From Candidatus Pacearchaeota archaeon (GTDB lineage Archaea > Nanobdellota > Nanobdellia > Pacearchaeales > GW2011-AR1), in contig JASFEO010000002.1 in NCBI GenBank assembly GCA_050124795.1, positions 36,754 through 100,753 on the forward strand: a stretch of 64,000 bases of DNA, given 5' to 3'. Position numbers and translations under genes: made by a program. Below the pieces are notes generated by a model, which saw only the letters and a program-made list of their open reading frames with translations, ran no database searches and was not told where the DNA came from. Of this stretch, positions 1-55,541 are shown piece after piece. The stretch's first letter is position 1; the number at the start of each line of letters is the position of its first letter.

Positions 1-81
1 GCATTAATTTCTTCATTACTAAATATGCCTGTTGGTGTAAGATTTGCAGCTTTAACAAAAGAAGGAATAATTGATTTGTAA
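1..81 (+). CDS. 3' end of an unidentified gene running in from outside the window
   Basis: Frame 1 open from base 1 (ALISSLLNMPVGVRFAALTKEGIIDL) to TAA at 79-81; next ATG at 83. Confidence 0.55.
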   Translation, partial: ALISSLLNMPVGVRFAALTKEGIIDL

Positions 82-82
82 A

Positions 83-319
83 ATGACATTTGATAATTGG
101 GATGATGAAGAAATGAAAGACTTGCTTTATGAAGGGTGGCAGGTAGCGTGTTTTCCAGGAGGGGGTTTTGAATATTTGAATAGCCCTTCAGGGAAAAGAT
201 ATAATTTTGAAGATATTAATGAACTGCAATCTAAAGTTTTTCGTCATGAACTTCCTTTGTCTCCTGAAGAATCATCTGCTTTAAAATTATATAATCTTTC
301 TTCAAGAATGTATAGCTAA
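83..319 (+). CDS. Hypothetical protein (tandem family member 1)
   Basis: ATG at 83 right after upstream TAA; shares E-x(0-2)-G-[WF]...P-[DS]-[GK]-K pattern with next two ORFs. Confidence 0.65.
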   Translation: MTFDNWDDEEMKDLLYEGWQVACFPGGGFEYLNSPSGKRYNFEDINELQSKVFRHELPLSPEESSALKLYNLSSRMYS

Positions 320-326
320 TTTTAAA

Positions 327-659
327 ATGAAAAACATAGAAGATTTAACAGAACAAGAAATTCTTGGAGAAATCATGAGTCTTGAAGAACAAGGTTTTCA
401 GTTTTTTGTTGATTCTCATTCTGATAAAGAAACTCCTTTTTATGTTCCTGACAGAGTAAAACTTCCAGATGGAAAAATTCTTGAAGAAAAAGAATTGCGT
501 TCTGAATTAAAAAAAGATCCTTACAATAAGAATTTTCAAAATGGATTATATTTATTTGATTTATGTTTTTCAGAACAATATGGCGATGATAGATTTACTC
601 ATTATAGTTTTGATGGAGATGAAGATGTTGAAAATTGCCGTTGGAAATATGAAAAGTAA
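327..659 (+). CDS. Hypothetical protein (tandem family member 2)
   Basis: 110-aa ORF; EEQGFQF...LPDGKI; TAATTTTAAAATG junction. Confidence 0.65.
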   Translation: MKNIEDLTEQEILGEIMSLEEQGFQFFVDSHSDKETPFYVPDRVKLPDGKILEEKELRSELKKDPYNKNFQNGLYLFDLCFSEQYGDDRFTHYSFDGDEDVENCRWKYEK

Positions 660-667
660 TTTTTAAA

Positions 668-1057
668 ATGACAAAATTTAATCCTAGAAAACATGAAGTC
701 TTTGATTTTCTAACTTTTGAATATAGTCAGGATTATCTTGGTTATGCAAGAGAAATGGATTTTTCAAAAGAAGAAATCAGTGATTTAGAAAGAGGATTAG
801 AAATGGAGAGAAATGGCTGGGGCTTTTTAGAATTTAAAAATTGTATAGTTTATCAAGGGAAAAAAAGGGAAATAAAAGACAGAACTTATTTTATTGTAAC
901 TCCTGATAAAAAAATTGTCCCAACATCTAAATTAAATAATTCTAAACTTGTCTTTGGAAATCCTGAATCTATTTTATTAAAAAAAGTTGGAGACTATTTT
1001 GGAATTTGTAAAATTCTATTAGATGAAACTGCATTTGAAAGAGCAGGAAGTTTTTAA
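668..1057 (+). CDS. Hypothetical protein (tandem family member 3)
   Basis: 129-aa ORF; ERNGWGF...TPDKKI; TAATTTTTAAAATG junction. Confidence 0.65.
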   Translation: MTKFNPRKHEVFDFLTFEYSQDYLGYAREMDFSKEEISDLERGLEMERNGWGFLEFKNCIVYQGKKREIKDRTYFIVTPDKKIVPTSKLNNSKLVFGNPESILLKKVGDYFGICKILLDETAFERAGSF

Positions 1058-1065
1058 TTTGTAAA

Positions 1066-1975
<910 letters not shown>

Positions 1976-1989
<14 letters not shown>

Positions 1990-6174: not shown

Positions 6175-6175
6175 A

Positions 6176-6508: not shown

Positions 6509-7162
6509 ATGAAAACAAACAAACCTCTTGTTAAGCGAGTTGAACTTGTGACAATTGAAGGTCATGATGAAATATCTGATGTCCTATATAGAGAAGAAAA
6601 TGCAACTTACAGACTATATGACAATTTAACTAAACCAATGACTTTGCCTGAACTCTCAAAATATTCTGCAAAAGAAAAAGAAAAAGGAAATCCTTATGTT
6701 CCTAATTCTGAAGAATTGTGGAGTGTCTTTACTGCAATTGCAAATTCAGAAAACCCTGAACTTATTTCAAGAGTTAGAGATGAATTAAGAGGCAAATGGA
6801 TAAGAACATTAACTGCAATTGACTGGTATTCAAATAGAAATTCAAGAGTTATTCATAATGTCAAAACTCCAGATGCTTATTTTAAACAAAGAAAAGTACT
6901 CGGTGAAGATGGGTTTATCCATCAAGTTAAATCTAAAAAACTTCTTGAAAATGTTCTTGGAACAAATAATGTGAAGAAGATCAATAGTGTTTCTCAAAAA
7001 ATAAATCAAACTCCAATGTATCAATGGAGAATAAATTCTAAACCTGATAAAAAACTTAGAACAAGTGTGGAGCTCTACGCGGGTTCCGGCAGGTTGTTCC
7101 TGGATTGCGGCGGGGATCCCTTGGATGAGTGTCCTGCTTTCCGGGTATTAAGAGTTGATTAA
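6509..7162 (+). CDS. DGR target protein with C-terminal variable region
   Basis: 217 aa; codons 186-213 (7064-7147) match TR 7478-7561 except at TR adenines; ends ..PAFRVLRVD like CLec-type VR ends. Confidence 0.9.
   Translation: MKTNKPLVKRVELVTIEGHDEISDVLYREENATYRLYDNLTKPMTLPELSKYSAKEKEKGNPYVPNSEELWSVFTAIANSENPELISRVRDELRGKWIRTLTAIDWYSNRNSRVIHNVKTPDAYFKQRKVLGEDGFIHQVKSKKLLENVLGTNNVKKINSVSQKINQTPMYQWRINSKPDKKLRTSVELYAGSGRLFLDCGGDPLDECPAFRVLRVD
7064..7147 (+). repeat. DGR variable repeat (VR)
   Basis: 69/84 identical to TR; 12 A>G and 3 A>T relative to TR. Confidence 0.93.
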
Positions 7163-7225: not shown

Positions 7226-7477
7226 AAAATTTTTAAGAGACGCTTTCTTAATCTTTTTGCCCAGAAGAGTTTTTTCGTTTGAGAAGCGAGAGAACTTAAT
7301 GGACTACACGCCGGTTAATCAGCGCATTATTAAGGTTTATTTTAAGCCATGAAATTCAACAGCGACAATTAGTAGCAATAAAAGTGAAAATCTGAAGTTG
7401 TGGTGCTTCCCTTGAAATCTCTTCATGGATTTCATTTGCCAGAAGATCTCTTTTAGAGAAGATTAATTGGCTATAAA

Positions 7478-7561
7478 AGTGTGGAGCTCAACGCGAATTC
7501 CGACAGGTTGAACCTGAATTGCAACAGGAATCCCTTGAATGAGTATCCTGCTTTCCGAATA
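7478..7561 (+). repeat. DGR template repeat (TR)
   Basis: Intergenic; 24 adenines, seven AAY codons in VR frame; all 60 non-A positions identical to VR. Confidence 0.93.
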
Positions 7562-8399: not shown

Positions 8400-9503
8400 A
8401 TGGAAGAGATTTACCAAAGAGAGGAAAGTTTTATTTCTGCTCAATCATCTGAATTAAAAGATATTGATAGGGAACTTGCAGAGTTATTAAAAAAGCAAAC
8501 AGCAAAAATAAAAGTTATTGGCTGCGGAGGCGGAGGAGGAAATTCACTCTCGCGAATGAGAGAAATTGGAATTAAAGGAGGAGAATTAATTGCAATTAAT
8601 ACAGATGCTCAGGATTTACTTTATGCAAATGCAGACCAGAAAATTTTAATTGGAAAAGAATTAACTCAGGGATTAGGTGCAGGAAGCAATCCAAAAATCG
8701 GGCAAGAAGCTGCAAAAGAGTCTGAGTCAGAAATAAAAAAGAAAATTGCAAATTCAGATATGATTTTCATAACCTGCGGATTTGGAGGAGGAACCGGAAC
8801 TGGTTCTGCACCGGAAGTCGCAAAACTCGCAAAAAAACAAGGAGCACTAACTATTGGCGTCGTGACTTTGCCGTTCACAATTGAAGGAAGAAAAAGAATT
8901 GAAAATGCAATGGACGGACTCGAAAGAATGGAATCAGTTGTTGACACCTTAATTGTAATTCCAAATGATAAACTTCTGGAACTAGCGCCAGACTTGCCCT
9001 TGCACACAGCTTTTAAAATTGCCGACGAAATTCTAACAAACGCAGTAAAAGGAATAACTGAACTTGTAACAACTTCTGGTTTAGTGAATTTGGATTTTGC
9101 AGATGTAAAAGCAGTAATGGTTGGCGGAGGAGTTTCATTAATCGGAATGGGTGAATCAGATACAGAACAAAGAGCAATTGACGCAGTTGAAAAAGCAATA
9201 CAAAATCCCTTGCTTGACGTCGACATTTCAAACGCAACTGGTTCATTAGTAAATATAATCGGCGGACCAAACATGAGTTTAGATGAATGCAAAGCAATAA
9301 TCGAGCACATCGGTGAAAGGCTTTCTCCAGATGCAAAATTAATCTGGGGAGCGCAAATCGCAGAAGACATGGAAAAGTCAATCAGAGTTTTATTAATTGT
9401 AACCGGTGTGAAATCCTCGCAAATTTTAGGTCACGGAGAATCAATTGACAACATAAAACACAAAGAAATCGAAGAAGAATTGGGAATAGAGTTTTATGAA
9501 TAA
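8400..9503 (+). CDS. ftsZ: Cell division protein FtsZ
   Basis: GCGGGGGN, NTDAQDL, GGGTGTG tubulin signature, VNLDFADV. Confidence 0.98.
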   Translation: MEEIYQREESFISAQSSELKDIDRELAELLKKQTAKIKVIGCGGGGGNSLSRMREIGIKGGELIAINTDAQDLLYANADQKILIGKELTQGLGAGSNPKIGQEAAKESESEIKKKIANSDMIFITCGFGGGTGTGSAPEVAKLAKKQGALTIGVVTLPFTIEGRKRIENAMDGLERMESVVDTLIVIPNDKLLELAPDLPLHTAFKIADEILTNAVKGITELVTTSGLVNLDFADVKAVMVGGGVSLIGMGESDTEQRAIDAVEKAIQNPLLDVDISNATGSLVNIIGGPNMSLDECKAIIEHIGERLSPDAKLIWGAQIAEDMEKSIRVLLIVTGVKSSQILGHGESIDNIKHKEIEEELGIEFYE

Positions 9504-10458: not shown

Positions 10459-10638
10459 ATGGCAAAATTATTAACCCAAACAAAATCATTTTTTCTAAAA
10501 TGCAAACGTGTTTGGCATATCATGAAAAAACCCTCGAAAAAAGAATACACAACAATCGCCAAAGTCTCTGCAATCGGCATCGGAGTTTTAGGAATCCTGG
10601 GTTTTGCAATCTCAATCATCATGAATGTTTTCAAATAA
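10459..10638 (+). CDS. secE: Protein translocase subunit SecE/Sec61-gamma
   Basis: 59 aa ..RVWHIMKKPSKKEYTTIAKVSAIGIGVLGILGFAI..; canonical ftsZ-secE-spt5-rpl11 order; manual translation. Confidence 0.92.
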   Translation: MAKLLTQTKSFFLKCKRVWHIMKKPSKKEYTTIAKVSAIGIGVLGILGFAISIIMNVFK

Positions 10639-10747: not shown

Positions 10748-11203
10748 ATGATTTTCATAATAAAAGTAACAACAAACAAAGAAGAACGAGCACTTGACAT
10801 GATTGCAGACCGCTCTGAGAAAAAACAATTAAGAGTTTATTCTGTTTCGCGCCCCTTTGGTCTTCGTGGCTACATCTTGCTCGAGGCTGAAGACAGGGAA
10901 TCTGCCGAAGAAGCAGTTTTCAATCTGCCTTATGTAAAAGGGATAATCGGAAAAACAATTGAATACGACGAAATAAAAGGAATGGTGGAACCAACTGCAG
11001 CAACAGTATCAATCAAAGAAGGCGACATTGTCGAAATCCTGGCAGACTCATTTAAAAAAGAAAAAGCAAAAGTTTTAAGAATAGACAAGCAAAAAGAAAA
11101 AGTAGTTGTGAGTTTGTTAGGCGCAGTAGTGCCCCTGCCGGTAACAATCAATTTAGACAGTGTAAAAGTTATCAGACGTGAAGGAGAAGAAGACAATGAA
11201 TAG
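10748..11203 (+). CDS. spt5: Transcription elongation factor Spt5/NusG
   Basis: NGN (LRGYILLEA) plus KOW (EGDIVEIL) domains; synteny. Confidence 0.93.
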   Translation: MIFIIKVTTNKEERALDMIADRSEKKQLRVYSVSRPFGLRGYILLEAEDRESAEEAVFNLPYVKGIIGKTIEYDEIKGMVEPTAATVSIKEGDIVEILADSFKKEKAKVLRIDKQKEKVVVSLLGAVVPLPVTINLDSVKVIRREGEEDNE

Positions 11204-11432: not shown

Positions 11433-11530
11433 TCATCTTGTGCGATTTTCGGCGGAGGCAATTAAAAAAATCGCTTCACCGGAACAAGAAGGGAGATTCC
11501 AAAGAACCGCTTAGGTTCTTTTGATATGCA
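11433..11530 (+). repeat. Dispersed element family B, copy 1 (abuts rpl11 start)
   Basis: 90/98 identical to 55407-55504; stems GCGATTTT/AAAATCGC and AAAGAACC-GCTTA-GGTTCTTT. Confidence 0.9.
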
Positions 11531-12152
11531 AATTAAAATTTTAGCAGAAGGCGCAAGCATGAAACCAGGACCAGCACTTTCTCAAAAACTTGGACCAGCT
11601 GGAATAAACATAGGACAAGTTATCTCAAAAGTTAATGACGCTACAAAAAATTTCAAAGGAATGAAAGTCCCTGTTGAGCTTGATGTTAATCCAACAACAA
11701 AAGATTTTGAAGTCCGGGTTTTCTCACCTCCTGTTTCAGAACTATTAAAAAAAGAATTAAAAATTGAAAAAGGTTCAGGAGAACAGGCGCAGGTTAAAGT
11801 TGCAAATGCCTCAATCGAGGACATAATAAAAGTCGCAATAACAAAATTCCCAAACATGCTCTGCAATAATTTAAAAACTGCTGTTAAAACTGTTGCAGGA
11901 AGTTGCGTAAGCTTAGGAATTTTAATTGAAAACAAAACTGCATCAGAAATTGAACAAGATATTGAAGACGGGAAATTTGATAAAGAAATAAATTCTGAAA
12001 AAACAGAAACTGAAACAGAGAAGAGAAAAGAGCTTGATGAATTTTTTTCTAAAGTAAAAGGTGAGCAGGATAAAGTAATAAAACAAAAAGAAGCAGCTAA
12101 AGCCGCTGAAGCAGAAAAAGATGAAAAGAAAGCTGAAAAAGCTAAGAAATAA
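11526..12152 (+). CDS. rpl11: 50S ribosomal protein L11
   Basis: PGPALSQKLGPAGINIG, GMKVPVEL, PPVSELLKK; charged C-terminal extension. Confidence 0.95.
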   Translation: MQIKILAEGASMKPGPALSQKLGPAGINIGQVISKVNDATKNFKGMKVPVELDVNPTTKDFEVRVFSPPVSELLKKELKIEKGSGEQAQVKVANASIEDIIKVAITKFPNMLCNNLKTAVKTVAGSCVSLGILIENKTASEIEQDIEDGKFDKEINSEKTETETEKRKELDEFFSKVKGEQDKVIKQKEAAKAAEAEKDEKKAEKAKK

Positions 12153-12200
12153 TTTTATAATAAAGTTTTTAAGGAGATATAGGATTGTTTATTTAATATT

Positions 12201-12273
12201 GGGGATATGGGGTAGCCTGGTAGCCTTTCAGGTTTGGGACCTGACGACCGCGGTTCAAATCCGCGTATCCCCA
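12201..12273 (+). tRNA. tRNA-Pro(TGG)
   Basis: Acceptor GGGGATA/TATCCCC; anticodon arm TCAGG-TT TGG GA-CCTGA; GGTTCAAATCC T-arm. Confidence 0.95.
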
Positions 12274-12278
12274 TTTTT

Positions 12279-12324: not shown

Positions 12325-12423
12325 AACTCAAGAACAATTAATCCTCAAATCCCGAGCAATTACGTGGTAGAAGTCCAAAACATTCAAAATAAAAAACTAA
12401 AAACTTCGTGCGTGATTGGGAGT
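12325..12423 (+). repeat. Dispersed element family A, copy downstream of tRNA-Pro
   Basis: AACTCAAGA..CGAGCAATTACGTGGTAGAAG..AAAAACTTCGTGCG-tga-TTGGGAGT. Confidence 0.8.
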
Positions 12424-12500
12424 TAGTATCCACCTTTATCGCAAATTGAAAATTTTTCTTAACAATAACCTTTAAAAACCAATTTCTAATCTTTATAATA

Positions 12501-12662
12501 ATGGCAAAACAAACTATTTATGGAGATGAGAATCTTAGTTACACAGTTAAGGCAAAAGATATGTCTCCTATAATCGACGGAATCTACATGCACTTGCCTT
12601 CAGAAAGAATCTGCGCTCTTGACAAAAGAATGAAAGACGGAGAATTAAAATTACGAGAGTAA
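12501..12662 (+). CDS. Small hypothetical protein (53 aa)
   Basis: MAKQTIYGDENLSY...KLRE*; TTTAAAA box upstream; ends 6 nt before rpl37ae. Confidence 0.45.
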   Translation: MAKQTIYGDENLSYTVKAKDMSPIIDGIYMHLPSERICALDKRMKDGELKLRE

Positions 12663-12668: not shown

Positions 12669-12887
12669 ATGCCCACTAAATTAAAAAAAACAAAATCAGC
12701 AGGAAGGTTCGGTGCAAAACACGGAATCAGAGTAAGAAAAAAATTAGTTAAAGTAGAGGAAAAACAAAGAATTAAACAAAAATGCCCATTTTGCGAAAAG
12801 CTTGGTGTCAAGAGATTATCAAAAGGAATCTGGCACTGCAAAAAATGCAATAAAAAATTCGCAAGCGGCGCATACACAGTCGATTAA
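12669..12887 (+). CDS. rpl37ae: 50S ribosomal protein L37Ae
   Basis: AGRFGAKHG, CPFC...GIWHCKKC..FASGAY. Confidence 0.95.
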   Translation: MPTKLKKTKSAGRFGAKHGIRVRKKLVKVEEKQRIKQKCPFCEKLGVKRLSKGIWHCKKCNKKFASGAYTVD

Positions 12888-12888
12888 A

Positions 12889-13119
12889 ATGGCAACAGAA
12901 CAACAAATTGAATATGCAAGTGATTTTGTTAGTTGCATTGAGCACATAAAAGAAACTAAGGGGAAGGCTCCTAGATGGGCTACACAATGTAATATTGGGT
13001 ATGCAAGAAGATGTTATGCTAAAATCAACGAGATAAAAAGTATTGTTGTTGGAACTAGTTTAAAAGAATTAAATGCTCTTGAAAAGGAATTCAATTGGGA
13101 GGAAACAAAAATTAATTAA
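12889..13119 (+). CDS. Hypothetical protein inserted between rpl37ae and rpoP
   Basis: 76 aa from ATG 12889; flanked by 13-bp direct repeat ATTAAAATGGCAA. Confidence 0.6.
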   Translation: MATEQQIEYASDFVSCIEHIKETKGKAPRWATQCNIGYARRCYAKINEIKSIVVGTSLKELNALEKEFNWEETKIN

Positions 13120-13120
13120 A

Positions 13121-13258
13121 ATGGCAATTTATAAATGTTTTAAGTGCGGCAAGAAAATCAAGTCAGCAGACCTTGACAAAAGATTTGTCTGTCCTCATTG
13201 CGGAAGCAAGGTTTTCTACAAGCCCCGAACAAAAGTAAAAAAAATAAAAGCAGAATAA
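13121..13258 (+). CDS. rpoP: RNA polymerase subunit Rpo12 (RpoP)
   Basis: YKCFKCGK...CPHCGSKVFYKPR zinc ribbon; synteny. Confidence 0.92.
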   Translation: MAIYKCFKCGKKIKSADLDKRFVCPHCGSKVFYKPRTKVKKIKAE

Positions 13259-18772: not shown

Positions 18773-19392
18773 TACCTGAATTTTTTTCAAACCTGATTGA
18801 TTATCTCCTTGATTTTTCTCTTTCAGTTGGTTATATTGGAACTTTTATCTGGATGCTAATTGAAAGTTCATTTGTTCCATGGCCAAGTGAATTATTATTA
18901 ATTCCTCAGGGAGCTTTGGTTGCGCAGGGAAAATTAAATTTCTTAGGAGTTTTAATTGCAGGAATTTTAGGAAGTCTTGCAGGAGCATTAGTAAATTATT
19001 TACTTGCATTTTATCTCGGAAGAAAAACTATTAATAAACTTATCTTTAGATATGGAAGATTTCTTTTTATTGATGAAAAAAAAATAATAAATTCTGATGG
19101 TTATTTTAAAAAGCACGGAAACATAACAACATTTGTTGGAAGATTAATTCCTGGAATAAGGCAGTTAATTTCACTTCCTGCTGGTTTTTCAAAAATGAAT
19201 CTTTCTAAATTTTGTTTATTCACTTCATTGGGCGCGGGAATTTGGGCGACCGCATTAATTGCAATCGGCTTCTTTTTTGGAAGCAGTATTGATCCGGCTC
19301 TAAAAAAAGAAATAACTTTTCTGGCGGTGATTTTTTCTTTTTTAATCATGTTAATTTATTATTTAACTAAAAAAAGAAAATCTAAAAACTAG
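18769..19392 (+). CDS. dedA: DedA family membrane protein
   Basis: ESSFVPWPSE, GRLIPGIRQLISLPAG. Confidence 0.92.
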   Translation: MIPEFFSNLIDYLLDFSLSVGYIGTFIWMLIESSFVPWPSELLLIPQGALVAQGKLNFLGVLIAGILGSLAGALVNYLLAFYLGRKTINKLIFRYGRFLFIDEKKIINSDGYFKKHGNITTFVGRLIPGIRQLISLPAGFSKMNLSKFCLFTSLGAGIWATALIAIGFFFGSSIDPALKKEITFLAVIFSFLIMLIYYLTKKRKSKN

Positions 19393-30889: not shown

Positions 30890-30954
30890 AAGAAGAATTA
30901 AGAAATTATGTTTTATAAATATTTCATTTGTCAAAAATTCTTAAAGAATAAAAA

Positions 30955-31308
30955 TTATTGTATAATCGGCTTTGCATTTCCATCTTTATCATAAATAATA
31001 CATTCTTCTTTATCACAAACTTCCCATCCTGCTCCTTTGCCGGTAATAGTCCCTTCGTAATCTTGTTTAGCGCTTTCAAATGCTGCATCTATTTCTTTCT
31101 TTCCCATATGTATCTTAAGCTCGTTTTCTCGTTGATATCTGCCTGATTGCATAAAAGCAGGAGCATGGTCATAAAAGTCGTTTTCAACCCCCCTTACAAT
31201 TTGCTCAAAACAACCATAACACATACTAACTGTTGGAATAACAACTAATGCTGTTGTATTTCTTATTAGTTTACCTAAGCTTATTTTCATGCTTTTTCTA
31301 AGAATCAT
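30955..31308 (-). CDS. Hypothetical protein (ORFan cassette)
   Basis: 117 aa; flanked by 15-bp direct repeat TGTCAAAAATTCTTA. Confidence 0.6.
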   Translation of the reverse strand: MILRKSMKISLGKLIRNTTALVVIPTVSMCYGCFEQIVRGVENDFYDHAPAFMQSGRYQRENELKIHMGKKEIDAAFESAKQDYEGTITGKGAGWEVCDKEECIIYDKDGNAKPIIQ

Positions 31309-31367
31309 AAGTATTTAAACCTTTCGTTTTTGTTGTTATCCCAAAGGAGTGTCAAAAATTCTTACTT

Positions 31368-40284: not shown

Positions 40285-40536
40285 TTAACTAACCTTCATC
40301 CCAACCTTGACATCTTTCTCAGGCGAGATAACAGAATCATTAACCAATGGAACAACCAAATTATTTTCCTTAATCCCGACAATTATTTTCTTCCCCTTTT
40401 TCACATTAATTTTTTGTTTCAATTCCAGAACTTTTTCACCAACATCAACTTTAATATTTTCTTCATCTATTTCAACAACTTCTCCGACTATTAAATCAAC
40501 TTTCATCCAATCTTCAAAATTAATTTCTGGTTTCAT
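40285..40536 (-). CDS. Shortened tRNA-binding OB-fold (Trbp111/MetG-C-like) paralog
   Basis: INFEDWMKVDLIVGEV..VDVGEK..ISPEKDVKVG; lacks NL.P...G..S.GM motif. Confidence 0.7.
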   Translation of the reverse strand: MKPEINFEDWMKVDLIVGEVVEIDEENIKVDVGEKVLELKQKINVKKGKKIIVGIKENNLVVPLVNDSVISPEKDVKVGMKVS

Positions 40537-41099
40537 TTTTTATAAACTGATTTAATGAATGATCTTATTTGTGAAGCGACAATTTCAATAAGCTCGTTTA
40601 ACTTTAAAACAAACACAGGGTTAATATCAACTTTCTCATTTAATAATTTTTCTTTTACAGAAATTCCCCTTGACAAAAGGATTGATTTTATTTTTGAGTT
40701 TAGTTCATAATTTAATAAGTTTCTTGAATTTTTGCAAACAATAACTCCTAATTGCAACTCAGCATTTTTTAATGAAGATAAAAACAAATCAACATCTGTT
40801 GAATCAATTAATTTATATTTAATCTGCAAACCCAATTTAACTTCTCCTAAAAATCCCACACTAAAATTAAGAAATCCATCAATACCTCTATCTCTGGTTT
40901 TTGGAGTTTTAACTAATGCTATATTCATATACTCAAAAAATTCATAGATTATTTCTTCAAATGTGAAACCTTTATTTTCCGAGGATTCAATTCTTTTTTT
41001 AACTCTTTCAAAAATAAACTCTTTAATTTTTTCTTCTTCAAAACAAATGTCTTCATCAAAGGTTATTTCTTCTTCTAAACTTGAAAAAAGATTATTCAT
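40533..41099 (-). CDS. Mrr-like PD-(D/E)xK restriction endonuclease domain protein
   Basis: FEEII..TPKTRDRGIDG...LQIK pattern of Mrr_cat. Confidence 0.7.
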   Translation of the reverse strand: MNNLFSSLEEEITFDEDICFEEEKIKEFIFERVKKRIESSENKGFTFEEIIYEFFEYMNIALVKTPKTRDRGIDGFLNFSVGFLGEVKLGLQIKYKLIDSTDVDLFLSSLKNAELQLGVIVCKNSRNLLNYELNSKIKSILLSRGISVKEKLLNEKVDINPVFVLKLNELIEIVASQIRSFIKSVYKK

Positions 41100-41449
41100 T
41101 TTACAAAATTAATTTTGCTCCCATTTTCTTTTTTCTCCTTTGGAGAGATTAAAACACAAACATTCTCTTCTTTACTTCCTGCTGCTAAAAGCATTCCTTC
41201 ACTTAATATACCCCTCATTTTTCGAGGAGCTAAGTTAGCTAAAACAATTATTTTTTTATTTAGAAGTTCATCTTTAGAATAATATTTCTTAATTCCTGCG
41301 CAAATTGTTCTCATTTTTTCTTCACCTAAATCAACACTTAATTTGTAAAGTAAATCAGCTCCTTCTATTTCTGTGGCTTCTTTTATCTCACCAACTCGCA
41401 AATCAAGTTTCATCCAGTCTTCAAAATTAATTTTTGCTATTCCCTCCAT
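41096..41449 (-). CDS. tRNA-binding protein (MetRS C-terminal domain/Trbp111/CsaA-like)
   Basis: DWMKLDLRVGEI, GADLLY, RTICAGI, NLAPRKMRGILSEGMLLAA. Confidence 0.9.
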   Translation of the reverse strand: MEGIAKINFEDWMKLDLRVGEIKEATEIEGADLLYKLSVDLGEEKMRTICAGIKKYYSKDELLNKKIIVLANLAPRKMRGILSEGMLLAAGSKEENVCVLISPKEKKENGSKINFVK

Positions 41450-41495
41450 AATTAATTAAGAATTAGGCGGTTTAAATAATTAATTATTTCAATAT

Positions 41496-41915
41496 TTATA
41501 AAATATCCCTTGCTCTTCTTTCTGATTTCCTTAATGCTTTTATATGTTCAGCATTTGTTATTGCTTCTTTACAAGCCCCCCCATAACCTTCTAAAAAATC
41601 TTTTTCATTCTTAGGAGATATCCCTTTTGAATCTATGAGGGTATAACCCTTTTTACCAGAAACTTTTTGATTATATGTCTCTTCCGCGGATAAAACAATT
41701 TCAAGACTTTTAGGGTCAACTAATTTTTCCAACCCCCTTCCAAATTCAAGCCCGAGTATAAAAGATCCCAAAGAGCGACCTTCATATTCCATAGTTCCTT
41801 CTTTGAGAAGGGGCGATTTACAGCAATAAGTATGCTTTGTTTTAAAAAATCTCTTAATTCCTCCCGGAACATAAGTTTTCTTAAACAGCAAAACCTGATT
41901 ATCTTTTAATTCCAT
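41496..41915 (-). CDS. Hypothetical protein, paralog of 42758-43159
   Basis: MELKDNQVLL, CKSPL, LEIVLS, GISxxxxxxFLxGY shared. Confidence 0.7.
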   Translation of the reverse strand: MELKDNQVLLFKKTYVPGGIKRFFKTKHTYCCKSPLLKEGTMEYEGRSLGSFILGLEFGRGLEKLVDPKSLEIVLSAEETYNQKVSGKKGYTLIDSKGISPKNEKDFLEGYGGACKEAITNAEHIKALRKSERRARDIL

Positions 41916-42000
41916 TTTCTATCTTTCTAAAAAGTATCTCGCCTTTTTTAATATTATTATTCTGTGAAATATATTTTCGAAGTTAATTATCAATTAATCC

Positions 42001-42483
42001 TTAAATTTCTTTTCTATTTTTATAATATGGAGAATCTGAAGGAAAGGCTTTAATCTTCTTAGTGTCAGGTTTAGTAGCTTTTGATTTGTTAGTAATCACC
42101 CCCGTAGGAACAGGAGTTATTTTATTTAATTTTTTTCTTTCAGGAACTCTTAATCTCATTCTTCGATCTCTTTTCCAAAATCTTTCCTTTAAGTTATTCT
42201 CTAAATTTTCTATTTTCTCTTTTTCATTTTTCCCATCTGCATAGGCAGTTATTTTTTCTCTGTCTCTTGGAAAATTTCCCAATCCCGGATTAAATTCATA
42301 CAGGACACTGCAATCCAAAAGGTGATAGGTAACACTCCCTCCAATATAGCGCAATCTATTTGCTTCATTTTTCCCATTCACATATCCGTCTTTATTAAGT
42401 TCATGAAAAACTTCCAAAACTTTCCATGGATACAAAAAATCATTATCTGTTAATGAATCCTGCTCGTGAATTATTTTAGGCAT
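42001..42483 (-). CDS. Hypothetical protein
   Basis: 160-aa ORF, TAAAATG coupling. Confidence 0.55.
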   Translation of the reverse strand: MPKIIHEQDSLTDNDFLYPWKVLEVFHELNKDGYVNGKNEANRLRYIGGSVTYHLLDCSVLYEFNPGLGNFPRDREKITAYADGKNEKEKIENLENNLKERFWKRDRRMRLRVPERKKLNKITPVPTGVITNKSKATKPDTKKIKAFPSDSPYYKNRKEI

Positions 42484-42484
42484 T

Positions 42485-42754
42485 TTATTTTTGCCAAGGC
42501 AATTCTCCTTTTAGATAAGCCTCGCGATAATCTTTATGATTTAACCTTTGAGGGTTATATTTTTTAATATATTCTTCTGCATCTTTATAATCCTTAGAAT
42601 AATCTCCAATGAAATTTCCATCTTCATCCCAATCAGTATTATGAGTAGCAATAATTAATTGTCCATTTTTCATGACAACTCTTTTTATTGCCCTCTCAAC
42701 CATTGCTTCTCCGCATGAAACAAAATAATTATCACTTGATTCTTCAATTGTCAT
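42485..42754 (-). CDS. Hypothetical protein
   Basis: 89-aa ORF. Confidence 0.55.
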   Translation of the reverse strand: MTIEESSDNYFVSCGEAMVERAIKRVVMKNGQLIIATHNTDWDEDGNFIGDYSKDYKDAEEYIKKYNPQRLNHKDYREAYLKGELPWQK

Positions 42755-42757
42755 TTT

Positions 42758-43159
42758 CTATTTTTTTCTTTTAAAATTTTGAAATTGTTGATCATAAAAT
42801 GCTTCATAACCTCTTAAAAAATTTCTTTGCTCTCTAAATGAAATTCCACTTGAAATTATATGGCGAAATTCTTTTTTATCATTCGAAAGAAGACTTCCAT
42901 TATATTCAATATCTCCTGACAAAACAATTTCAAGATCTCTCGGTTCAATTAATTCAATCTTCTCGTCTTTTAATTTTCCTCCAAACATTTCCCCAAGATA
43001 AAAAAGATCATTTAATGGATGACGAGTAGAGATCATGCCTGATAAAGGAGACTTGCAAAAATAAAAAGGAGAATCTTTTCTTGGAAGCATTCTCTTAAAA
43101 AAATTCCGATAAATTAATATATTTTTTATCAACAAAACCTGATTATCTTTTAATTCCAT
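42758..43159 (-). CDS. Hypothetical protein, paralog of 41496-41915
   Basis: Start MELKDNQ at 43159, 1 nt after metG stop. Confidence 0.7.
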   Translation of the reverse strand: MELKDNQVLLIKNILIYRNFFKRMLPRKDSPFYFCKSPLSGMISTRHPLNDLFYLGEMFGGKLKDEKIELIEPRDLEIVLSGDIEYNGSLLSNDKKEFRHIISSGISFREQRNFLRGYEAFYDQQFQNFKRKK

Positions 43160-43160
43160 T

Positions 43161-44633
43161 TTATATTTTCTTAAAAAGGATTTCACCTTTTTTAATTTTA
43201 TTGTGTTCAAGAAGTGGTTTTTTTATTTCATTCCAACTGATTTTAAATCCAAACTGCTCTGCTATTTTCTCACTTGTCGACGGAATAAAAGGGGAAAGTA
43301 AAATTGCAATAGACTTTATCATATTAGCGACTTCATATAAAATTTTTTTGTTTTTGGTCTCCCAAGGCTTTGTTGATTGAATATATTCATTACAAATATC
43401 TATCTCTTCAAATAAAAAGTTTAATGCTCTGTCAAATTGAAAACTATCCATAACTCCCTCAATCTTTTTATTTAGAATGGTGGATGCATAAAGAATAGAT
43501 TGGTCATCGTTTTTTCCTAATTTTTCCATTCCATTCTTCTCAACAAGTCCACTAACTCGCGAAACTAAATTTCCTAATTTATTTGCAAGTTCATTATTGT
43601 GCCTGTCAATCAAAGCCTCTTTTGAGAAATCCCCGTCAGAACCAAATGGAATTGTCCTCATTAAATAATATCTTAAAGTATCTGCTTCATATTCCTCCAA
43701 AAGTTCTAAGGGAGCCACGACATTTCCAACAGACTTTGACATTTTCCTTCCATTAACAGTTAAAAAACCATGTACAATTAATTCTTTAGGCAAAGGTAAA
43801 CCAAGACTCAAAAGCATTCCTGTCCAAATTCCTGCATGGAACCTGTGCATATCTTTTCCTGCAACGTGAACATCACATGGCCAATATTTTTTGTATTTTT
43901 TATCAGGATATCCTATTCCTGTCAGGTAATTTCCAAGAGCCTCGCACCACACATACATAACCTGGTTATCGTCGCCAGGAACAGGAATACCCCAAGGCAA
44001 ATGCTTTTTCTCTCTTGAAAAACTCACATCAGTCAACCCTTCCTTAGCCAAACCAAGAAAATCATTTTTCCATTGCTTTGGATAAATCTTATACTGATCT
44101 TCTTCAATTATTTTTTTAATCTCTTCAGAATACTTGCTTAATTTAAAAAAATAATTCTCCTCTGAAATCTTTTGAATTTCTAAACTTGGGTGGTCAGGAC
44201 ATTTTTCATCCACAAGGTCTTTTTCTGTAACAAATCTCTCGCAACCAGAACAATAAAAACCAGTATACTTTTTTTTATAGATGTCACCTTTTTCTGCTAA
44301 CTTCTTCCAGATATCTAGAACCCCTGGCCAATGCATTTTTTTATCTGTTGTCCTAATAAAAAAAGTATTGGAAATATTCAACTTCTTTGTTAGTTCCTGA
44401 AAATATCCTGAATTCATATCAACAAATTCCTTTGGTTCCATTCCAAGTTTTTTAGCAGTCTGATAATTCTTAGTTCCATGTTCATCTGTTCCTGTTAAAA
44501 AAAATACATCCTTCCCTTTAAGCTTGTTCCATCTTGCAAGAATATCTGCAGTAATTATTTCCAATGCAAAACCAATGTGCGGAGGCGCATTTGCATAAGG
44601 AATTGTCGTTGTAATGTAAAACTTTTTTTTCAT
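43161..44633 (-). CDS. metG: Methionine--tRNA ligase
   Basis: FYITTTIPYAN.PHIG, TGTDEHG, KMSKS. Confidence 0.96.
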   Translation of the reverse strand: MKKKFYITTTIPYANAPPHIGFALEIITADILARWNKLKGKDVFFLTGTDEHGTKNYQTAKKLGMEPKEFVDMNSGYFQELTKKLNISNTFFIRTTDKKMHWPGVLDIWKKLAEKGDIYKKKYTGFYCSGCERFVTEKDLVDEKCPDHPSLEIQKISEENYFFKLSKYSEEIKKIIEEDQYKIYPKQWKNDFLGLAKEGLTDVSFSREKKHLPWGIPVPGDDNQVMYVWCEALGNYLTGIGYPDKKYKKYWPCDVHVAGKDMHRFHAGIWTGMLLSLGLPLPKELIVHGFLTVNGRKMSKSVGNVVAPLELLEEYEADTLRYYLMRTIPFGSDGDFSKEALIDRHNNELANKLGNLVSRVSGLVEKNGMEKLGKNDDQSILYASTILNKKIEGVMDSFQFDRALNFLFEEIDICNEYIQSTKPWETKNKKILYEVANMIKSIAILLSPFIPSTSEKIAEQFGFKISWNEIKKPLLEHNKIKKGEILFKKI

Positions 44634-47147: not shown

Positions 47148-47187
47148 CTAAAAATCAGGAATCTGAATTATTTAAAATTTGGGATTA

Positions 47188-47302
47188 CGACTCGAGCAGG
47201 AATCTACTCCCAACCTCGCACGAAGTTTTTAATTTAGACACTGAATTTTTTGAGCTTCTACCACGAAGTTGCTCGCCTGCGCAAATAAATCTCTCTTGAG
47301 TT
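47188..47302 (-). repeat. Dispersed element family A copy plus duplicated tRNA-Ser 3' end
   Basis: Minus strand AACTCAAGA..CGAGCAACTTCGTGGTAGAAG..AAAAACTTCGTGCG-agg-TTGGGAGT, then ATTCCTGCTCGAGTCG (15/16 to tRNA 3' end 47324-39). Confidence 0.8.
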
Positions 47303-47323
47303 TAAGCAGGATTTAATTCTAAA

Positions 47324-47405
47324 CGCCTCGAGCAGGAATTGAACCTGCGCGTCCCGAAGGACCTCGGTTAGCAACCGAGTGCAATAACCACTATGCGATC
47401 GAGGC
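47324..47405 (-). tRNA. tRNA-Ser(GCT)
   Basis: GCCTCGA/TCGAGGC acceptor; CTCGG-TT GCT AA-CCGAG; long variable arm. Confidence 0.95.
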
Positions 47406-50860: not shown

Positions 50861-50884
50861 ATAGCAATTTACAACCTGTTAAAT

Positions 50885-52030: not shown

Positions 52031-52034
52031 AAAT

Positions 52035-52484
52035 ATGTTTGAAATTACACCGCCAAAAACCATAGAAAAAAAATCCGATGGAGGTTATGATTTTTTTCAT
52101 GAAGAATTTTTCAAATTAATTGACAAGTTAGAGAATCAAATGGCTTCTTTAAGATTTTTTAACGCCCTTTATGATGAATGTTTAGGAGTAATTAATTGTT
52201 ATGGGATAAAAGTTGATTTTTTAGGAAGAGAAATTGCATTTTCAGTAGAAGACACTAACTTAGGATTGGGATTATATTTAGAACATCAAAAGAAATTTTT
52301 TTCTAGAGAAATAATTATAGATTTTAGTAATGAAAGTGATGGTATAGAAAGAATTCTTTGCATGAGTAAAATAAAAGATAATTTCTTTTCTCAATTAAGG
52401 CCTTATGGACTCCATTTTCAAAATGCCCGCGGGGATATATTAAAAGAACACAATTATGACAAACTTTTTGAAGAAGATAATTAA
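52035..52484 (+). CDS. Hypothetical protein (ORFan)
   Basis: 149-aa ORF between rnhB and smc. Confidence 0.55.
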   Translation: MFEITPPKTIEKKSDGGYDFFHEEFFKLIDKLENQMASLRFFNALYDECLGVINCYGIKVDFLGREIAFSVEDTNLGLGLYLEHQKKFFSREIIIDFSNESDGIERILCMSKIKDNFFSQLRPYGLHFQNARGDILKEHNYDKLFEEDN

Positions 52485-52547
52485 ATCTCATTTTTTAAAA
52501 TCTAATATTAATTAAAATTTTAAAAACCCCAACTCCCTTTCTTCTTT

Positions 52548-55406
52548 ATGACCTTTATAAAAAAATTAGTGATGCATGGTTTCAAAAGTTTTGCAAGAAA
52601 AACAGAACTCCCATTTACCCCCGGAATCAATGTTATCCTTGGACCAAATGGTTCAGGAAAAAGTAATGTTTCAGATGCTCTGTGTTTTGTCCTCGGTAGA
52701 TTAAGCATAAAATCAATGCGCGCAGCAAAAGCAAAAAATTTAATTTTCCTTGGAACAAAAGTTGCAGCACCATCAAAAGAAGCTTCTGTTGAAATTGTTT
52801 TTGATAATTCTTCAAATAGTTTCACAATAGAAGAAAAAGATGTTTCAATAAAAAGAATTGTAAGGCGCAACGGCCAAAGCATTTACAAAATAAATAATCA
52901 AACAAAAACACGCCAGGAAGTTTTAAGTTTATTAGCTCAGGCAGGAATTGACCCAAATGGTTTTAACATAATCCTGCAGGGAGAAATCCAGAACTTTGTA
53001 AAAATGATGCCAGAGGAGCGAAGAAAAGTAATTGAAGAAGTCGCAGGAATTTCAATTTATGAATCACGAAAAGAAAAATCATTAAAAGAATTAAATAAAA
53101 CTGAGGAGAGATTAAAAGAAGTCAATGCGATTCTTAGAGAGAGAACTGCTTATTTAAATAATTTAGAAAAAGAAAGACAGCAGGCATTAAGATTTAAAAA
53201 AATTGAAGAAGATATAAAAAAATTCAAGGCAAGTATTATTTTTCAGAATTTAAAATTAAAGAAAAAAGATTTGGAAGTTATCGGGGGAAATATTAATAAA
53301 AAAAATAATGAAAAAGAAAAAATAAAAACAGGCATAAAAAATTTAGAAAAGAAAATATTTGAGAACAATTCAAAAGTCGATTCAATCAACCAGACTATAA
53401 AAAAGCAAACAGGATATGAACAGGAAAAATTAAATCAGGAAATCGCCAACTTAAGAGCAGAACTTGCAGGCTTAAATGTGAATTTATCAAACCTTGAAAA
53501 TAAATTATCTTCTATAAAAAAGGAAAGAGAAGAATCAAAAAATTCAATTGAAGAAAATGAAATTTCAATTAGGGAACTAAAAAAAGAATCCCCGACTTTG
53601 GCAAAAAAAGAAAAAGAGGTGGAGGCAAAAAAACAAAGACTTGAAGAACTTGAAAAAATCAGAAAAAAGTTTTACATGACAAAGTCTGAATTAAAATCTT
53701 TAAGAGACAGAATTAGTGATAAAAAAACTCTTCTTCAAAATTACACAGATGAATCAGATTTTTTAATTAAACAAATTGAAAAAATTTCTCTTGAGTTGTT
53801 TGACAAAAAAACAAACAAGGAAAAACTTGAAGACTTAAAATTTTCATTAAAAGAAAAAAAAGAATTATTAGAAGAACTCAGGCGCGAAGAAATTAATTTA
53901 GAAAAAACTTCTTCAACAAATGAATATGAAATTGACAAGCAAAAAAAATTAATCGACACTGTTTCAAAAATGGATATTTGTCCCGTGTGCAAAAATAAAA
54001 TCACAAACCAACATGTTCATTCAATAAATAAAGAAACAAATGAAAAAATTTCCTCATTAAATAATGAAATAAAAAACTCTGATTCAAAACTAAATTTAAT
54101 CTACCAAAAAAAAGATATTCTCGATAAAGATATTGAAAGTTTAACTTCTGAAATTCAAAAAAGAGAATCTGATCTCATGAACTTATTAAATATTAATGAG
54201 AAAAAAAATCAAATTAAATCTTTGCATGAAAAAATTAATATCGCAAAAGAAGAATTAACAGAACTTGAAAAAATCGAGAAAAAATTAAAAACTAATTTTG
54301 ATGAAAATTCAAATATTGAAACAAAATATGAAACACTTGCAGTTGAAGTCCAGGAAGTCTCTTTGCGGACAAAAGAAAATTTAAATTCAGAAGTTTCATT
54401 TAAAGAGCGCGAACTTGAGCGAGCAAAAATTTCTCTAAAAGAACTTGCAAGAAATTATGAGGATTTTTCTGAAGAGTTAAAGGAAGTAAAAAAGAAATTA
54501 GAAGAAAAAGAAAAATCATTAAAATCAAAAAAAGAAAAAGAAGAAAAACTTTCCATGGAGTTTCAAAAATTAATTAGTGAGCGGGATTCTTATTCAAAAG
54601 AAGCCAGAGAAATTGAATTAAAAATTTCAGGCCAGAATAATTTAATCTATAATATTGAACAGGAAATTAATAACATGAAAATTGAAAATGCAAGAGTCTC
54701 AGCAGAAATTGAAAACTTTGAAACTGAAATGCTCGGGTTTCCAAATATTGAAATAATAAAACAAAATAAAAATATTTTATCTGAAAGGTTGGCAAAGGCG
54801 CAGGAAATAAGCTCCAGAATTGGTTCAGTAAATATGCGTTCTCTCGAAGTTTATGACTCAGTAAAAAAAGAGTATGACACAATAAGCGAGAAAGTCGAAA
54901 TAATTGAAAAAGAAAAATTAGGAATTTTAAAAATCATAAATGAAATTAATATTAAGAAAAAGAAAACTTTTTTGAAAACCTTAACAGAACTTGATGAAAT
55001 TTTTTCAAGAAACTTTTCCCAATTAAATGCAAAAGGAGTTGTGTCTTTAGAACTTGAAAACAGAAAAAGCCCATTCGACGACGGAGTAAACATAATTGTA
55101 AAAACAGGACATGGAAAATATTTTGATGTTAAAAGTCTTTCAGGAGGAGAACAAACTTTAGTTGCGCTATCCTTAATTTTTGCAATACAGGAATTAAAAC
55201 CATATTACTTTTATATTTTAGATGAAATCGACGCAGCACTTGACAAAAGAAACTCAAGTCGCCTTGCAGACTTACTAAAAAAATACATGCAAAAAGGACA
55301 ATACATTGTAATCAGCCATAACGACGAAGTAATCGGAAATGCAACAAATCTTTATGGAATTAGTATGCATGATGGTGTCTCGAAAACCGTAAGCCTTAAA
55401 GTTTAA
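52548..55406 (+). CDS. smc: SMC-family chromosome segregation ATPase with central CxxC
   Basis: GFKSF, GPNGSGKSN, LSGGE, LDEIDAALD; long coiled coils; CPVC at aa 478-481. Confidence 0.88.
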   Translation: MTFIKKLVMHGFKSFARKTELPFTPGINVILGPNGSGKSNVSDALCFVLGRLSIKSMRAAKAKNLIFLGTKVAAPSKEASVEIVFDNSSNSFTIEEKDVSIKRIVRRNGQSIYKINNQTKTRQEVLSLLAQAGIDPNGFNIILQGEIQNFVKMMPEERRKVIEEVAGISIYESRKEKSLKELNKTEERLKEVNAILRERTAYLNNLEKERQQALRFKKIEEDIKKFKASIIFQNLKLKKKDLEVIGGNINKKNNEKEKIKTGIKNLEKKIFENNSKVDSINQTIKKQTGYEQEKLNQEIANLRAELAGLNVNLSNLENKLSSIKKEREESKNSIEENEISIRELKKESPTLAKKEKEVEAKKQRLEELEKIRKKFYMTKSELKSLRDRISDKKTLLQNYTDESDFLIKQIEKISLELFDKKTNKEKLEDLKFSLKEKKELLEELRREEINLEKTSSTNEYEIDKQKKLIDTVSKMDICPVCKNKITNQHVHSINKETNEKISSLNNEIKNSDSKLNLIYQKKDILDKDIESLTSEIQKRESDLMNLLNINEKKNQIKSLHEKINIAKEELTELEKIEKKLKTNFDENSNIETKYETLAVEVQEVSLRTKENLNSEVSFKERELERAKISLKELARNYEDFSEELKEVKKKLEEKEKSLKSKKEKEEKLSMEFQKLISERDSYSKEAREIELKISGQNNLIYNIEQEINNMKIENARVSAEIENFETEMLGFPNIEIIKQNKNILSERLAKAQEISSRIGSVNMRSLEVYDSVKKEYDTISEKVEIIEKEKLGILKIINEINIKKKKTFLKTLTELDEIFSRNFSQLNAKGVVSLELENRKSPFDDGVNIIVKTGHGKYFDVKSLSGGEQTLVALSLIFAIQELKPYYFYILDEIDAALDKRNSSRLADLLKKYMQKGQYIVISHNDEVIGNATNLYGISMHDGVSKTVSLKV

Positions 55407-55504
55407 TCATGCTGTGCGATTTTCGGCGGAGGCAATTGAAAAAATCGCTTCGCAGGGACAGGAAGGGAGATTCTAAAGAACCGCTTAGGTTCTTTTGATA
55501 TGCA
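55407..55504 (+). repeat. Dispersed element family B, copy 2
   Basis: 90/98 identical to 11433-11530. Confidence 0.9.
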
Positions 55505-55541
55505 TGACGGAGTTAGTAAAACTGTTAGTCTTAAGGTTTAA
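55500..55541 (+). repeat. Second, synonymous copy of smc 3' end (MHDGVSKTVSLKV*)
   Basis: Same 13 aa + TAA as 55365-55406; 8 codons differ, all synonymous. Confidence 0.9.

Follow-up and report, generated by a model that had tools for sequence, protein, structure and literature searches.

Repeated gene ends in a Pacearchaeota genome: probably several origins rather than one insertion system

The window analysed here is a stretch of 64,000 nucleotides from the genome of a Candidatus Pacearchaeota archaeon (G000:C2:36754-100753; the source genome, G000, measures 1.06 Mb in 38 contigs, with ~31% G+C). A preliminary description listed six pairs of direct repeats at gene ends and stop/start junctions, and all six are found in the window sequence where they had been placed. 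Do they record a single insertion system that targets the ends of genes? That idea is largely refuted. What is real, at 16 loci of the genome, is a narrower class, in which the 3' end of a gene is followed by a short structured element and then by an echo of the same end, the gene itself being left intact. We consider that the six repeats have three different origins and are not the work of one insertion machine, and give this explanation as a whole a probability of about 0.55. The six pairs are the following.

Site 1: 74-82/1057-65, plus strand, 9 bp, ATTTGTAAA
Site 2: 12883-95/13115-27, plus strand, 13 bp, ATTAAAATGGCAA, made up of a stop TAA, an A, and ATG GCA A
Site 3: 24712-33/24771-92, plus strand, 22 nt exact; 24 of 25 nt over 24712-36/24771-95
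Site 4: 30929-43/31350-64, minus strand, 15 nt exact
Site 5: 47187-203/47323-39, minus strand, 16 of 17 nt, copying the 3' end of tRNA-Ser(GCT)
Site 6: 55365-406/55500-541, plus strand, the same 13 residues and stop, with 10 base changes in 8 codons

The genes that matter for the argument were assigned with Pfam, as were prefoldin, PolB and EF-1alpha, which are also in the window.

1057-1935, plus strand: reverse transcriptase (RT) of the RVT_1 family
8400-9503: FtsZ
10459-10638: SecE
10748-11203: Spt5
11526-12152: L11, with its start codon at 11526
12669-12887: L37ae
13121-13258: RpoP-like zinc ribbon
52548-55406, plus strand: SMC

How many such repeats would arise without any special process? 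Maximal exact pairs lying 20-1500 nt apart were counted in the window and compared with 30 order-3 Markov shuffles made in 4-kb blocks; order-5 shuffles were set aside because they overfit blocks of that size. Repeats of at least 9 nt numbered 2277 (2078 +/- 100 expected), those of at least 13 nt 46 (24.3 +/- 4.4), those of at least 15 nt 11 (2.8 +/- 1.4) and those of at least 22 nt 2 (0 expected). In the real sequence, eight bands of larger distance held 11-30 pairs of at least 13 nt each. Paralogues at 40-43 kb and the low-complexity coiled coil of SMC supply most of the excess 15-mers. Sites 3, 5 and 6 are real and beyond chance. At 40481-43202, paralogous repeats of 49-81 nt recur at spacings of ~907 and 1230-1244 nt around a tRNA-binding-domain gene and MetRS.

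Site 6 lies at the end of the SMC gene and falls into three adjoining parts.

55365-55406, plus strand: copy 1, the working last 13 codons and stop of SMC, in atypical codon usage
55407-55499, plus strand: spacer of 93 nt, a copy of element A (see below), ending directly at the ATG of the echo
55500-55541, plus strand: copy 2, the echo, an ATG with 12 further codons and a stop, encoding the same 13 residues in typical codon usage

The rare codons of copy 1 place it in the lowest 3.6% of terminal 13-codon stretches genome-wide. Is such an echo peculiar to this genome? SMC loci were assembled into a set of 110 rows, comprising the window, 29 loci of GTDB relatives and 80 metagenome loci, and an echo was scored where a second copy of the last 13 codons and stop occurred within 400 nt. 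The C-terminus of SMC is highly conserved. Nine of the 110 carry an echo: the window, L105 (from the relative G016), L144, L145, L146, L162, L189, L197 and L214. Every echo begins at the same in-frame ATG. The spacers measure 27-172 nt and are of several kinds; they resemble element A in the window, L145, L162 and the 3' half of L144, are GC-rich 27-28-mers in L146 and L214, and are of other kinds in L189, L197 and L105. An assembly artefact is unlikely, given several independent projects, a shared ATG and identical tandem units; assemblers collapse identical tandem units rather than create them. At L162:5877-6133 an additional, partial copy of the gene end is present, and the A element there has a long insertion in its first hairpin loop.

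The differences between the two copies resemble those of a coding sequence. Over the nine echo pairs, 35 codon differences are synonymous and 4 non-synonymous, whereas a neutral simulation, with random changes in equal number, gave a mean of 32.8 non-synonymous differences and in none of its runs (0/20000) as few as four. A neutral spare copy is therefore disfavoured, because such a copy should decay mostly by non-synonymous changes. Moreover, both copies in the window carry a Thr that occurs in none of the other 109 rows. L144 is the sister row of the window (89% identical, SH-aLRT 99); its two copies match each other exactly and depart from both window copies at three residues. In a quick tree with SH-aLRT supports, the echo rows are scattered over at least three separately supported clades beside rows that lack an echo; for example, L105 sits in a clade (support 99) with two echo-less rows, and L197 in a clade (support 96) with five.

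Taken together, an origin from a donor or from another allele is hard to hold, because the copies share lineage-specific residues yet are close to synonymous saturation, and because the inserts are tiny. Since neutral decay and donor readings both fit poorly, a selected echo is favoured. Within the overall reading, the chance that the SMC echo is under selection, as a peptide or as an alternative last exon, is about even. In that case the echo would be no decaying scar: it would be expressed and kept by selection, whether through a 13-residue peptide made from a leader-type RNA or by serving as an alternative 3' exon. The part of the SMC head that it matches is, we presume, the place where kleisin binds.

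What is the element that stands between SMC and its echo? A second copy is found in the window.

11436-11525, plus strand: copy of element A directly upstream of the L11 start codon, 93% identical to the site 6 spacer

Element A occurs three times in G000 (at site 6, before L11 and on contig C23). The genomes used for comparison were 40 relatives, all from genera other than that of G000, and BLAST finds A in three of them. The genes whose ATG directly follows the 3' end of the element are those for L11 and a rhodanese in G000, for RpoP, L24e and S3Ae in the relative G010, and for a coiled-coil protein in G005 and G020. Element A contains a hairpin with a stem that covaries between genomes and an invariant 9-nt loop motif, and a terminal hairpin lies just before the ATG. 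Single-strand folds of the site 6 spacer were uninformative (z-scores -1.15 and -2.12), and the four A copies used for a consensus fold are too alike for covariation. A small protein gene was considered and rejected: the open frame differs between copies, and none is open in all. Rfam 15 gave no match to A, even at E values up to 10. A is probably a leader RNA. Two A copies among the G010 loci L074, L078 and L081 share a left flank of 25 nt that begins with TAAAATG.

Site 3 offers a second case of an echoed protein-coding end.

24712-24795, plus strand: last 7 codons and stop of a helix-turn-helix (HTH) gene, a 34-nt spacer and the second copy

The gene belongs to the HVO_A0114 family of HTH proteins, and the copy of its end recurs 59 nt later, with one synonymous change and a different stop codon. 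The duplication is absent from all 29 relatives compared and is a single 59-bp event found only in G000. Homology between the sequence after the second copy and the post-stop sequence of the closest relative, G020, identifies this copy as the original gene end, with the first copy and the spacer as additions. The order is the same, with the old end last, in L146, where three tandem units follow SMC and the last of them, which has a Gly-to-Arg change, adjoins the ancestral TAAAATG junction to the next gene. Sites 3 and 6 may accordingly be described alike, as echoes of C-terminal codons running from an in-frame ATG to the stop.

The end copied at site 5 is that of a tRNA gene, and the insert belongs to another family, here called element B.

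47187-47405, minus strand: site 5 unit, made up of tRNA-Ser(GCT) at 47324-47405, a spacer, the B core at 47202-47279 (67.7 bits) and the 17-nt copy at 47187-47203
12349-12427, plus strand: element B hairpin (72.4 bits), 75 nt downstream of tRNA-Pro(TGG) at 12200-12274

Thirteen copies of B align as two conserved blocks flanking a variable middle, and the structure consists of an 8-bp helix, an internal loop, a 5-bp helix and a variable loop. The covariation is strong: 96.4% of cells are paired, 8 of the 13 pairs have changed on both sides, and none of 500 shuffles did equally well; when the alignment blocks are slid as a control, pairing drops to 30-47%. One pair is U-G in 11 of the 13 copies, which fits an RNA made from the tRNA strand. 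A covariance model of B finds 18 copies in G000, five in G005 and one each in six other relatives, with none in 33 of the 40; among the 80 metagenome loci it gives five weak matches. As with A, nothing in Rfam 15 matches B, even at E values up to 10.

The distribution of B is closely tied to tRNA genes. Of the 18 copies in G000, 14 lie 22-171 nt downstream of a tRNA gene and are co-oriented with it; the genome has 36 predicted tRNA genes. The tRNAs trailed in this way are those for Lys, Leu, Pro (two), Ser (two), Glu, Arg, Gly, Cys, Asp, Ala, Val and Ile. After each trailer B there is a copy of the neighbouring tRNA's 3' end, 9-21 nt long: 21 nt for tRNA-Arg(TCG), 17 nt for tRNA-Arg(CCT) and site 5, and 10-12 nt for several others. 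The best ungapped score for such a 3'-end copy averages 11.3 for the 16 tRNAs with B downstream and 6.7 for the 20 without, against a null of 7.0 +/- 2.2. The direct repeat of the 3' part of the tRNA at the far border, as looked for in an integration scar, is thus present. At several loci the bases just before B copy the T-loop or T-stem of the tRNA, so that B lies inside a partial copy of the 3' part of the tRNA.

A B copy is also found as a 63-nt intron at position 37/38 of the sole tRNA-Gln(CTG) gene (51.3 bits), and its removal restores the cloverleaf. Another interrupts the copy of element A on contig C23, and two lie inside the two RT genes. Since one copy is a canonical intron and others lie in an A element and in both RT genes, B is taken for an element of an intron family that has spread. 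A splicing endonuclease is encoded in G000 (PF01974, 103 bits, C11:19984-20238). From these arrangements we infer that a trailer is a copy of the tRNA 3' part split by B, formed through recombination at the T-loop or 3' end. In each trailer module, B would split the T-loop of an incomplete copy of the tRNA 3' part, and the module would arise by recombination at the conserved T-loop/3' end, either att-like or mediated by cDNA, with the intact tRNA left upstream. ARAGORN also predicts a tRNA-Gln(TTG) with an 841-nt intron at G000:C4:18264-19199, a doubtful call.

The RT gene of the window is related to diversity-generating retroelements (DGR), and its reading frame includes a relative of B.

1066-1935, plus strand: 5'-truncated DGR-type RT; at about 1414-1504 it includes, in frame, a B-like hairpin (49.8 bits) whose loop is (TC)n

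Relative to 11 homologues, the hairpin amounts to an extra ~25-35 residues. It measures 81 nt in the window RT, where it is in frame, and 83 nt in the full-length RT of the same genome, where the frame shifts inside the (TC)n loop. That second, full-length DGR-type RT lies at G000:C2:500-1725 with a template-like repeat upstream, and its frame is broken only by a (TC)n tract that is 2 nt longer. Removal of the hairpin by splicing would leave an intact gene. Another gene for a nucleic acid polymerase lies at 58736-59197 of the window, an open reading frame (ORF) of 153 residues; it encodes no part of a family-X DNA polymerase beyond the palm and thumb and appears truncated or split.

Which enzyme might have moved B? 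Y1 transposases were considered as movers and set aside. The two genes (C26:1630-1992 and C27:8518-8871), which encode Y1 (HUH) transposases of the IS200/IS605 or REP-associated type, are on contigs with no B match. G000 gave no match to the TnpB-type TNB domain (PF07282). A transposon or miniature inverted-repeat transposable element should leave a target-site duplication of fixed length, and the tRNA-end copies do not show one. A more ambitious proposal, tentative and in our estimate rather unlikely, combines the observations on A, B and the echo: the A leader with the 13-residue peptide or last exon would be a working module, and A and B would be mobile RNA elements spread at conserved gene ends through cDNA made by the RT. 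Selection would keep the echo identical to the C-terminal strand of SMC, and the module would have arisen or persisted in many Pacearchaeota-like lineages; A and B would derive from introns spliced by the endonuclease or from leaders. If true, this would amount to a novel means of harmless insertion into essential genes.

Could all the real echoes be scars without function? In this explanation, the second copy came in with mobile DNA, or with DNA of a diverged donor, that recombined at a conserved 3' end, that of a tRNA or of SMC, either in the manner of attL/attR of elements integrating into tRNA genes or by homology-anchored illegitimate recombination; purely synonymous differences would then date from before the event. 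According to Sugahara 2012 (PMC3293823), direct repeats of tRNA 3' ends are a classic mark of integration into tRNA genes, and in the tRNA-disruption model described there an intron can ride in on the att copy. The atypical codons of copy 1 and the typical ones of copy 2 at the window SMC also agree with scars, as do the last copy adjoining ancestral downstream sequence at site 3 and L146, and the synteny break in the region downstream of SMC. However, the nine SMC inserts measure only 27-172 nt and none has an integrase. Both copies share lineage-specific residues (the Thr of the window and variants in L105, L189 and L144), and four pairs are near synonymous saturation, so that the donor must have been at once very close and very diverged. 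Nor can one element carry the matching 3' end of each of 14 tRNA genes of 12 identities. Functionless scars are therefore doubtful as an account of all the real echoes, with a chance we put at one in a few.

A somewhat less probable alternative is that local errors of replication, by template switching or slippage at short repeats and palindromes, produced tandem duplications of gene ends, sometimes with filler, neither targeted nor selected. A candidate pair exists at SMC, namely ATGCATGA in the gene and an inverted copy, TCATGC, just after the stop. Of the 9 echo rows, 5 have the hexamer TCATGC or TCATGG, the reverse complement of the beginning of the echoed segment, no more than 25 nt past the first stop; of the 101 rows that lack an echo, 3 do. 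The shared ATG of the SMC echoes agrees with this, as do the tandem units of L146 and L144, the insert of the latter being flanked by a perfect 72-nt repeat, and a junction-spanning tandem duplication on contig C3 (described below). Two points stand against it: neutral decay predicts mostly non-synonymous differences, and only 4 of 39 changed codons are of this kind; and such errors leave unexplained why leader-type elements end exactly at the ATG of the echo in four lineages.

The selected echo and the tRNA trailers, as preferred here, have difficulties of their own, and these weigh against the explanation given at the outset. The two copies in L144, L145 and L146 are identical or nearly so, which fits recent tandem duplication. 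A purely synonymous pattern could arise without function, from replacement by a diverged allele or from an integrating element, and the codons of copy 1 are indeed unusual. The bulge-helix-bulge of archaeal introns has two 3-nt bulges 4 bp apart at the splice sites; a near-canonical form could be sketched by hand for the C4 tRNA-Arg locus but not for site 5. The tRNA-end copies vary in length, and no integrase lies inside any echo unit; the tRNA units, of ~80-250 nt, contain no ORF. Finally, the gene calls were home-made, and some short genes were missed, including those for L37ae and RpoP.

The remaining sites involve orphan ORFs, and here the repeats can be accounted for in simpler terms.

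71-319, 327-659 and 668-1057, plus strand: orphan ORFs of site 1; the left 9-bp copy lies at the stop/start junction before the first of them
12889-13119, plus strand: orphan ORF of site 2, between L37ae and RpoP, bracketed by the 13-bp junctions within 12883-13127
30929-31364, minus strand: site 4, two 15-bp copies bracketing the orphan ORF 30955-31308, inside a pilin-like cluster

The 9-bp pair of site 1 is a chance match. Window positions 1065-1969 are 92% identical to C2:799-1705, and because this homology begins at 1065/1066, the right-hand copy is the breakpoint of a 5'-truncated RT duplicate. The other RT copy has 64 additional N-terminal residues and a template-repeat-like sequence upstream; the residues are missing from the copy in the window.

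Site 2 consists of two standard TAAAATG junctions of translational coupling with six further bases shared by chance, and is not significant. In the calls for G000, TAAAATG is the second commonest junction between genes on the same strand (51 of 1040), after the 4-base ATGA overlap (138). With open frames of at least 45 residues on both sides, 94 TAAAATG junctions are found in G000, forming 31 adjacent pairs. The two bases before and four after TAAAATG are common to 30 of 4371 junction pairs, so that 0.21 adjacent pairs sharing all six are expected and one, site 2 itself, is observed. TAAAATG is the ancestral junction between L37ae and RpoP, since four relatives have the two genes linked by it with nothing in between; G020, G008, G013 and G010 have other inserts there.

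The 15-bp pair of site 4 is borderline and possibly due to chance. The distance from each copy to the start codon downstream of it, that of the orphan ORF (ATG at 31308) or that of the next gene (likely ATG at 30889), is 40-56 nt, and outside the 15-mer the two intergenic stretches share no likeness. A shared operator was considered; the 15-mer gives 20 matches at up to three mismatches (20.4 expected), and the candidate was rejected.

How are the orphan ORFs distributed among relatives? The proposal that FtsZ-SecE-Spt5-L11 and L37ae-RpoP are split by orphan ORFs in G000 is borne out by comparison with the corresponding loci of 29 relatives, in which the four ORFs between FtsZ and L11 are absent. 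The ORFs at 12889-13119 and 30955-31308 match nothing in the 40 relatives and only themselves among 5.8 billion proteins, in a search that required shared 5-residue words; relatives carrying the orphan ORFs stably at the same sites, which would have spoken against an insertion system, were thus not found (0/40). A 53-residue ORF at 12501-12662 has its sole match in this comparison in G008, at a different place. Over 181 operon junctions in the relatives (FtsZ|SecE, SecE|Spt5, Spt5|L11, L37ae|RpoP and RpoP|prefoldin; three genomes were counted twice because two locus sets overlap), 31 hold inserts of at least 120 nt, which differ between genera. The longest word common to the left and right junctions of these inserts averages 6.23 nt, compared with 6.21 +/- 1.23 for shuffled pairs, and no junction duplication was detected at any of the 31. 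The orphan ORFs would accordingly be lineage-specific small genes that turn over at operon junctions across the Pacearchaeota-like family without duplication of the target. A contig covering 12001-32000, obtained from the DNA sequencing run that is probably the source of the genome, was single, with no empty-site variant and no joint at sites 2, 3 and 4.

A related arrangement occurs on the minus strand of G000:C3, at about 19012-19641 in plus-strand coordinates. The end of a ribosomal-protein gene (which we take to be S19e) together with TAAAATG, 20 nt in all, is repeated 326 nt downstream. The repeat brackets the first of two diverged tandem paralogous orphan ORFs, and the end of this first ORF copies residues of the preceding gene. 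The 20-nt repeat is a tandem duplication that includes the stop/start junction.

Are gene ends repeated downstream more often than elsewhere in the genome? The last 45 nt of 1431 genes were scanned over 1500 nt on either side, and matches of at least 14 nt numbered 21 downstream and 23 upstream. Permuted pairings of gene ends gave 7.8 +/- 3.1 such matches (20 pairings), and the local excess over them comes from tandem paralogues. One array, at G000:C8:32975-35509, comprises at least five tandem paralogous genes with identical last 45 nt. The genome-wide enrichment expected for a gene-end-targeting system is therefore not seen. This was the check proposed beforehand, and it gives no support to target-duplicating insertion of orphan ORFs. 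Phage_integrase matches, two in G000, are on contigs C3 and C5, with none in the window; attC-type inverted repeats were not seen either, the boundaries showing only TAAAATG or the 15-mer, although no formal attC model was run.

What, then, remains of one machinery that places orphan-ORF cassettes and mini-elements behind genes, duplicating the gene end in the manner of an integron? It would explain the succession of gene end, insert and copied end behind an intact gene at sites 3, 5 and 6 and at 14 tRNA loci, and the different inserts that conserved junctions hold in different genera, but it is very improbable, since chance and the coupling motif account for sites 1 and 2, gene-end repeats are no commoner downstream than upstream, the 31 inserts of relatives lack junction duplications, the inserts come from unrelated sequence families (A, B, the 27-nt spacers and the orphan ORFs), and no recombinase or attC-like array lies beside any site, both tyrosine recombinase genes being on other contigs. 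Insertion behind intact genes with a duplicated end holds for the 14 tRNA genes, SMC and the one HTH gene, and fails for the orphan-ORF sites; neither a single inserting process nor cassette capture without att arrays finds support.

The attractive idea of att-less cassette capture is thereby removed, and three testable items stand in its place. The first is element B, which ties a true tRNA intron to trailer modules behind 14 of 36 tRNA genes and bears on how archaeal introns and tRNA fragments spread. The second is element A, which Rfam does not describe and which is placed before ribosomal and other genes. The third is the SMC echo: it copies the end of an essential chromosome-organising protein, is present in ~8% of the relatives sampled and changes over time as coding sequence does. 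Should the echo prove to be translated or spliced, it would be a small regulatory or fail-safe module of a new kind; otherwise, it would be a clean natural record of recombination at conserved gene ends in tiny archaea.

How do these arrangements compare with known systems? The row of small, promoterless, tightly coupled ORFs in the window resembles integron cassettes; unlike these, it has no adjoining integrase, attI or attC-like sites, nor any repeat beyond the coupling motif. The resemblance to a DGR lies in a gene end that is repeated nearby as a non-translated copy, and in the presence of RT genes. The window does contain a true DGR (7063-7143/7477-7557), in which the variable repeat is the end of the ORF 6509-7162 and all mismatches fall at adenines of the template; an Rfam RT-16 RNA (84.4 bits) lies at 7261-7479, just upstream of the template. 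By contrast, the differences between the SMC and HTH copies are not confined to the adenines of one copy, and a DGR origin of sites 3 and 6 was rejected since their mismatches are of all kinds.

Integration scars and intron transposition are the nearest known parallels to the tRNA loci. Archaeal viruses and plasmids that integrate into tRNA genes (SSV-type and pNOB8-type, with attL and attR) leave a repeat of the tRNA 3' end such as is found at the units of G000. These units differ in being only ~80-250 nt long, without an integrase and with a repeat of 9-21 nt, and in that one hairpin family stands behind 14 tRNA genes of 12 amino-acid identities within a single 1.06-Mb genome. Fujishima and co-workers reportedly described archaeal tRNA introns that were transposed between positions and genes in Thermoproteales. 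The likeness here is that a similar intron family occurs at many tRNA loci of G000, once at the canonical position 37/38, where it is presumably cut by the endonuclease. The difference is that most B copies lie in the 3' trailer, within a partial copy of the T-arm and acceptor, and that others occur in a leader RNA and in two RT frames. No description of tRNA-trailer intron modules in DPANN archaea was found in the literature, supplementary material being outside the scope of that search. For an SMC echo under apparent selection, no published counterpart was found, although no search aimed at it was made; the literature searches bore on the trailer modules and on promoter reuse.

For element A, the closest known kind is the reuse of promoters. 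The work on 'putative mobile promoters' (PMC3575422) describes the reuse of promoters and leaders in prokaryotes. As there, homologous upstream sequence is found directly before unrelated genes, both within and between genomes. Element A differs in its conserved hairpin with an invariant loop and in ending exactly at the ATG, and one of its copies heads a 13-codon echo of the preceding gene rather than a gene.

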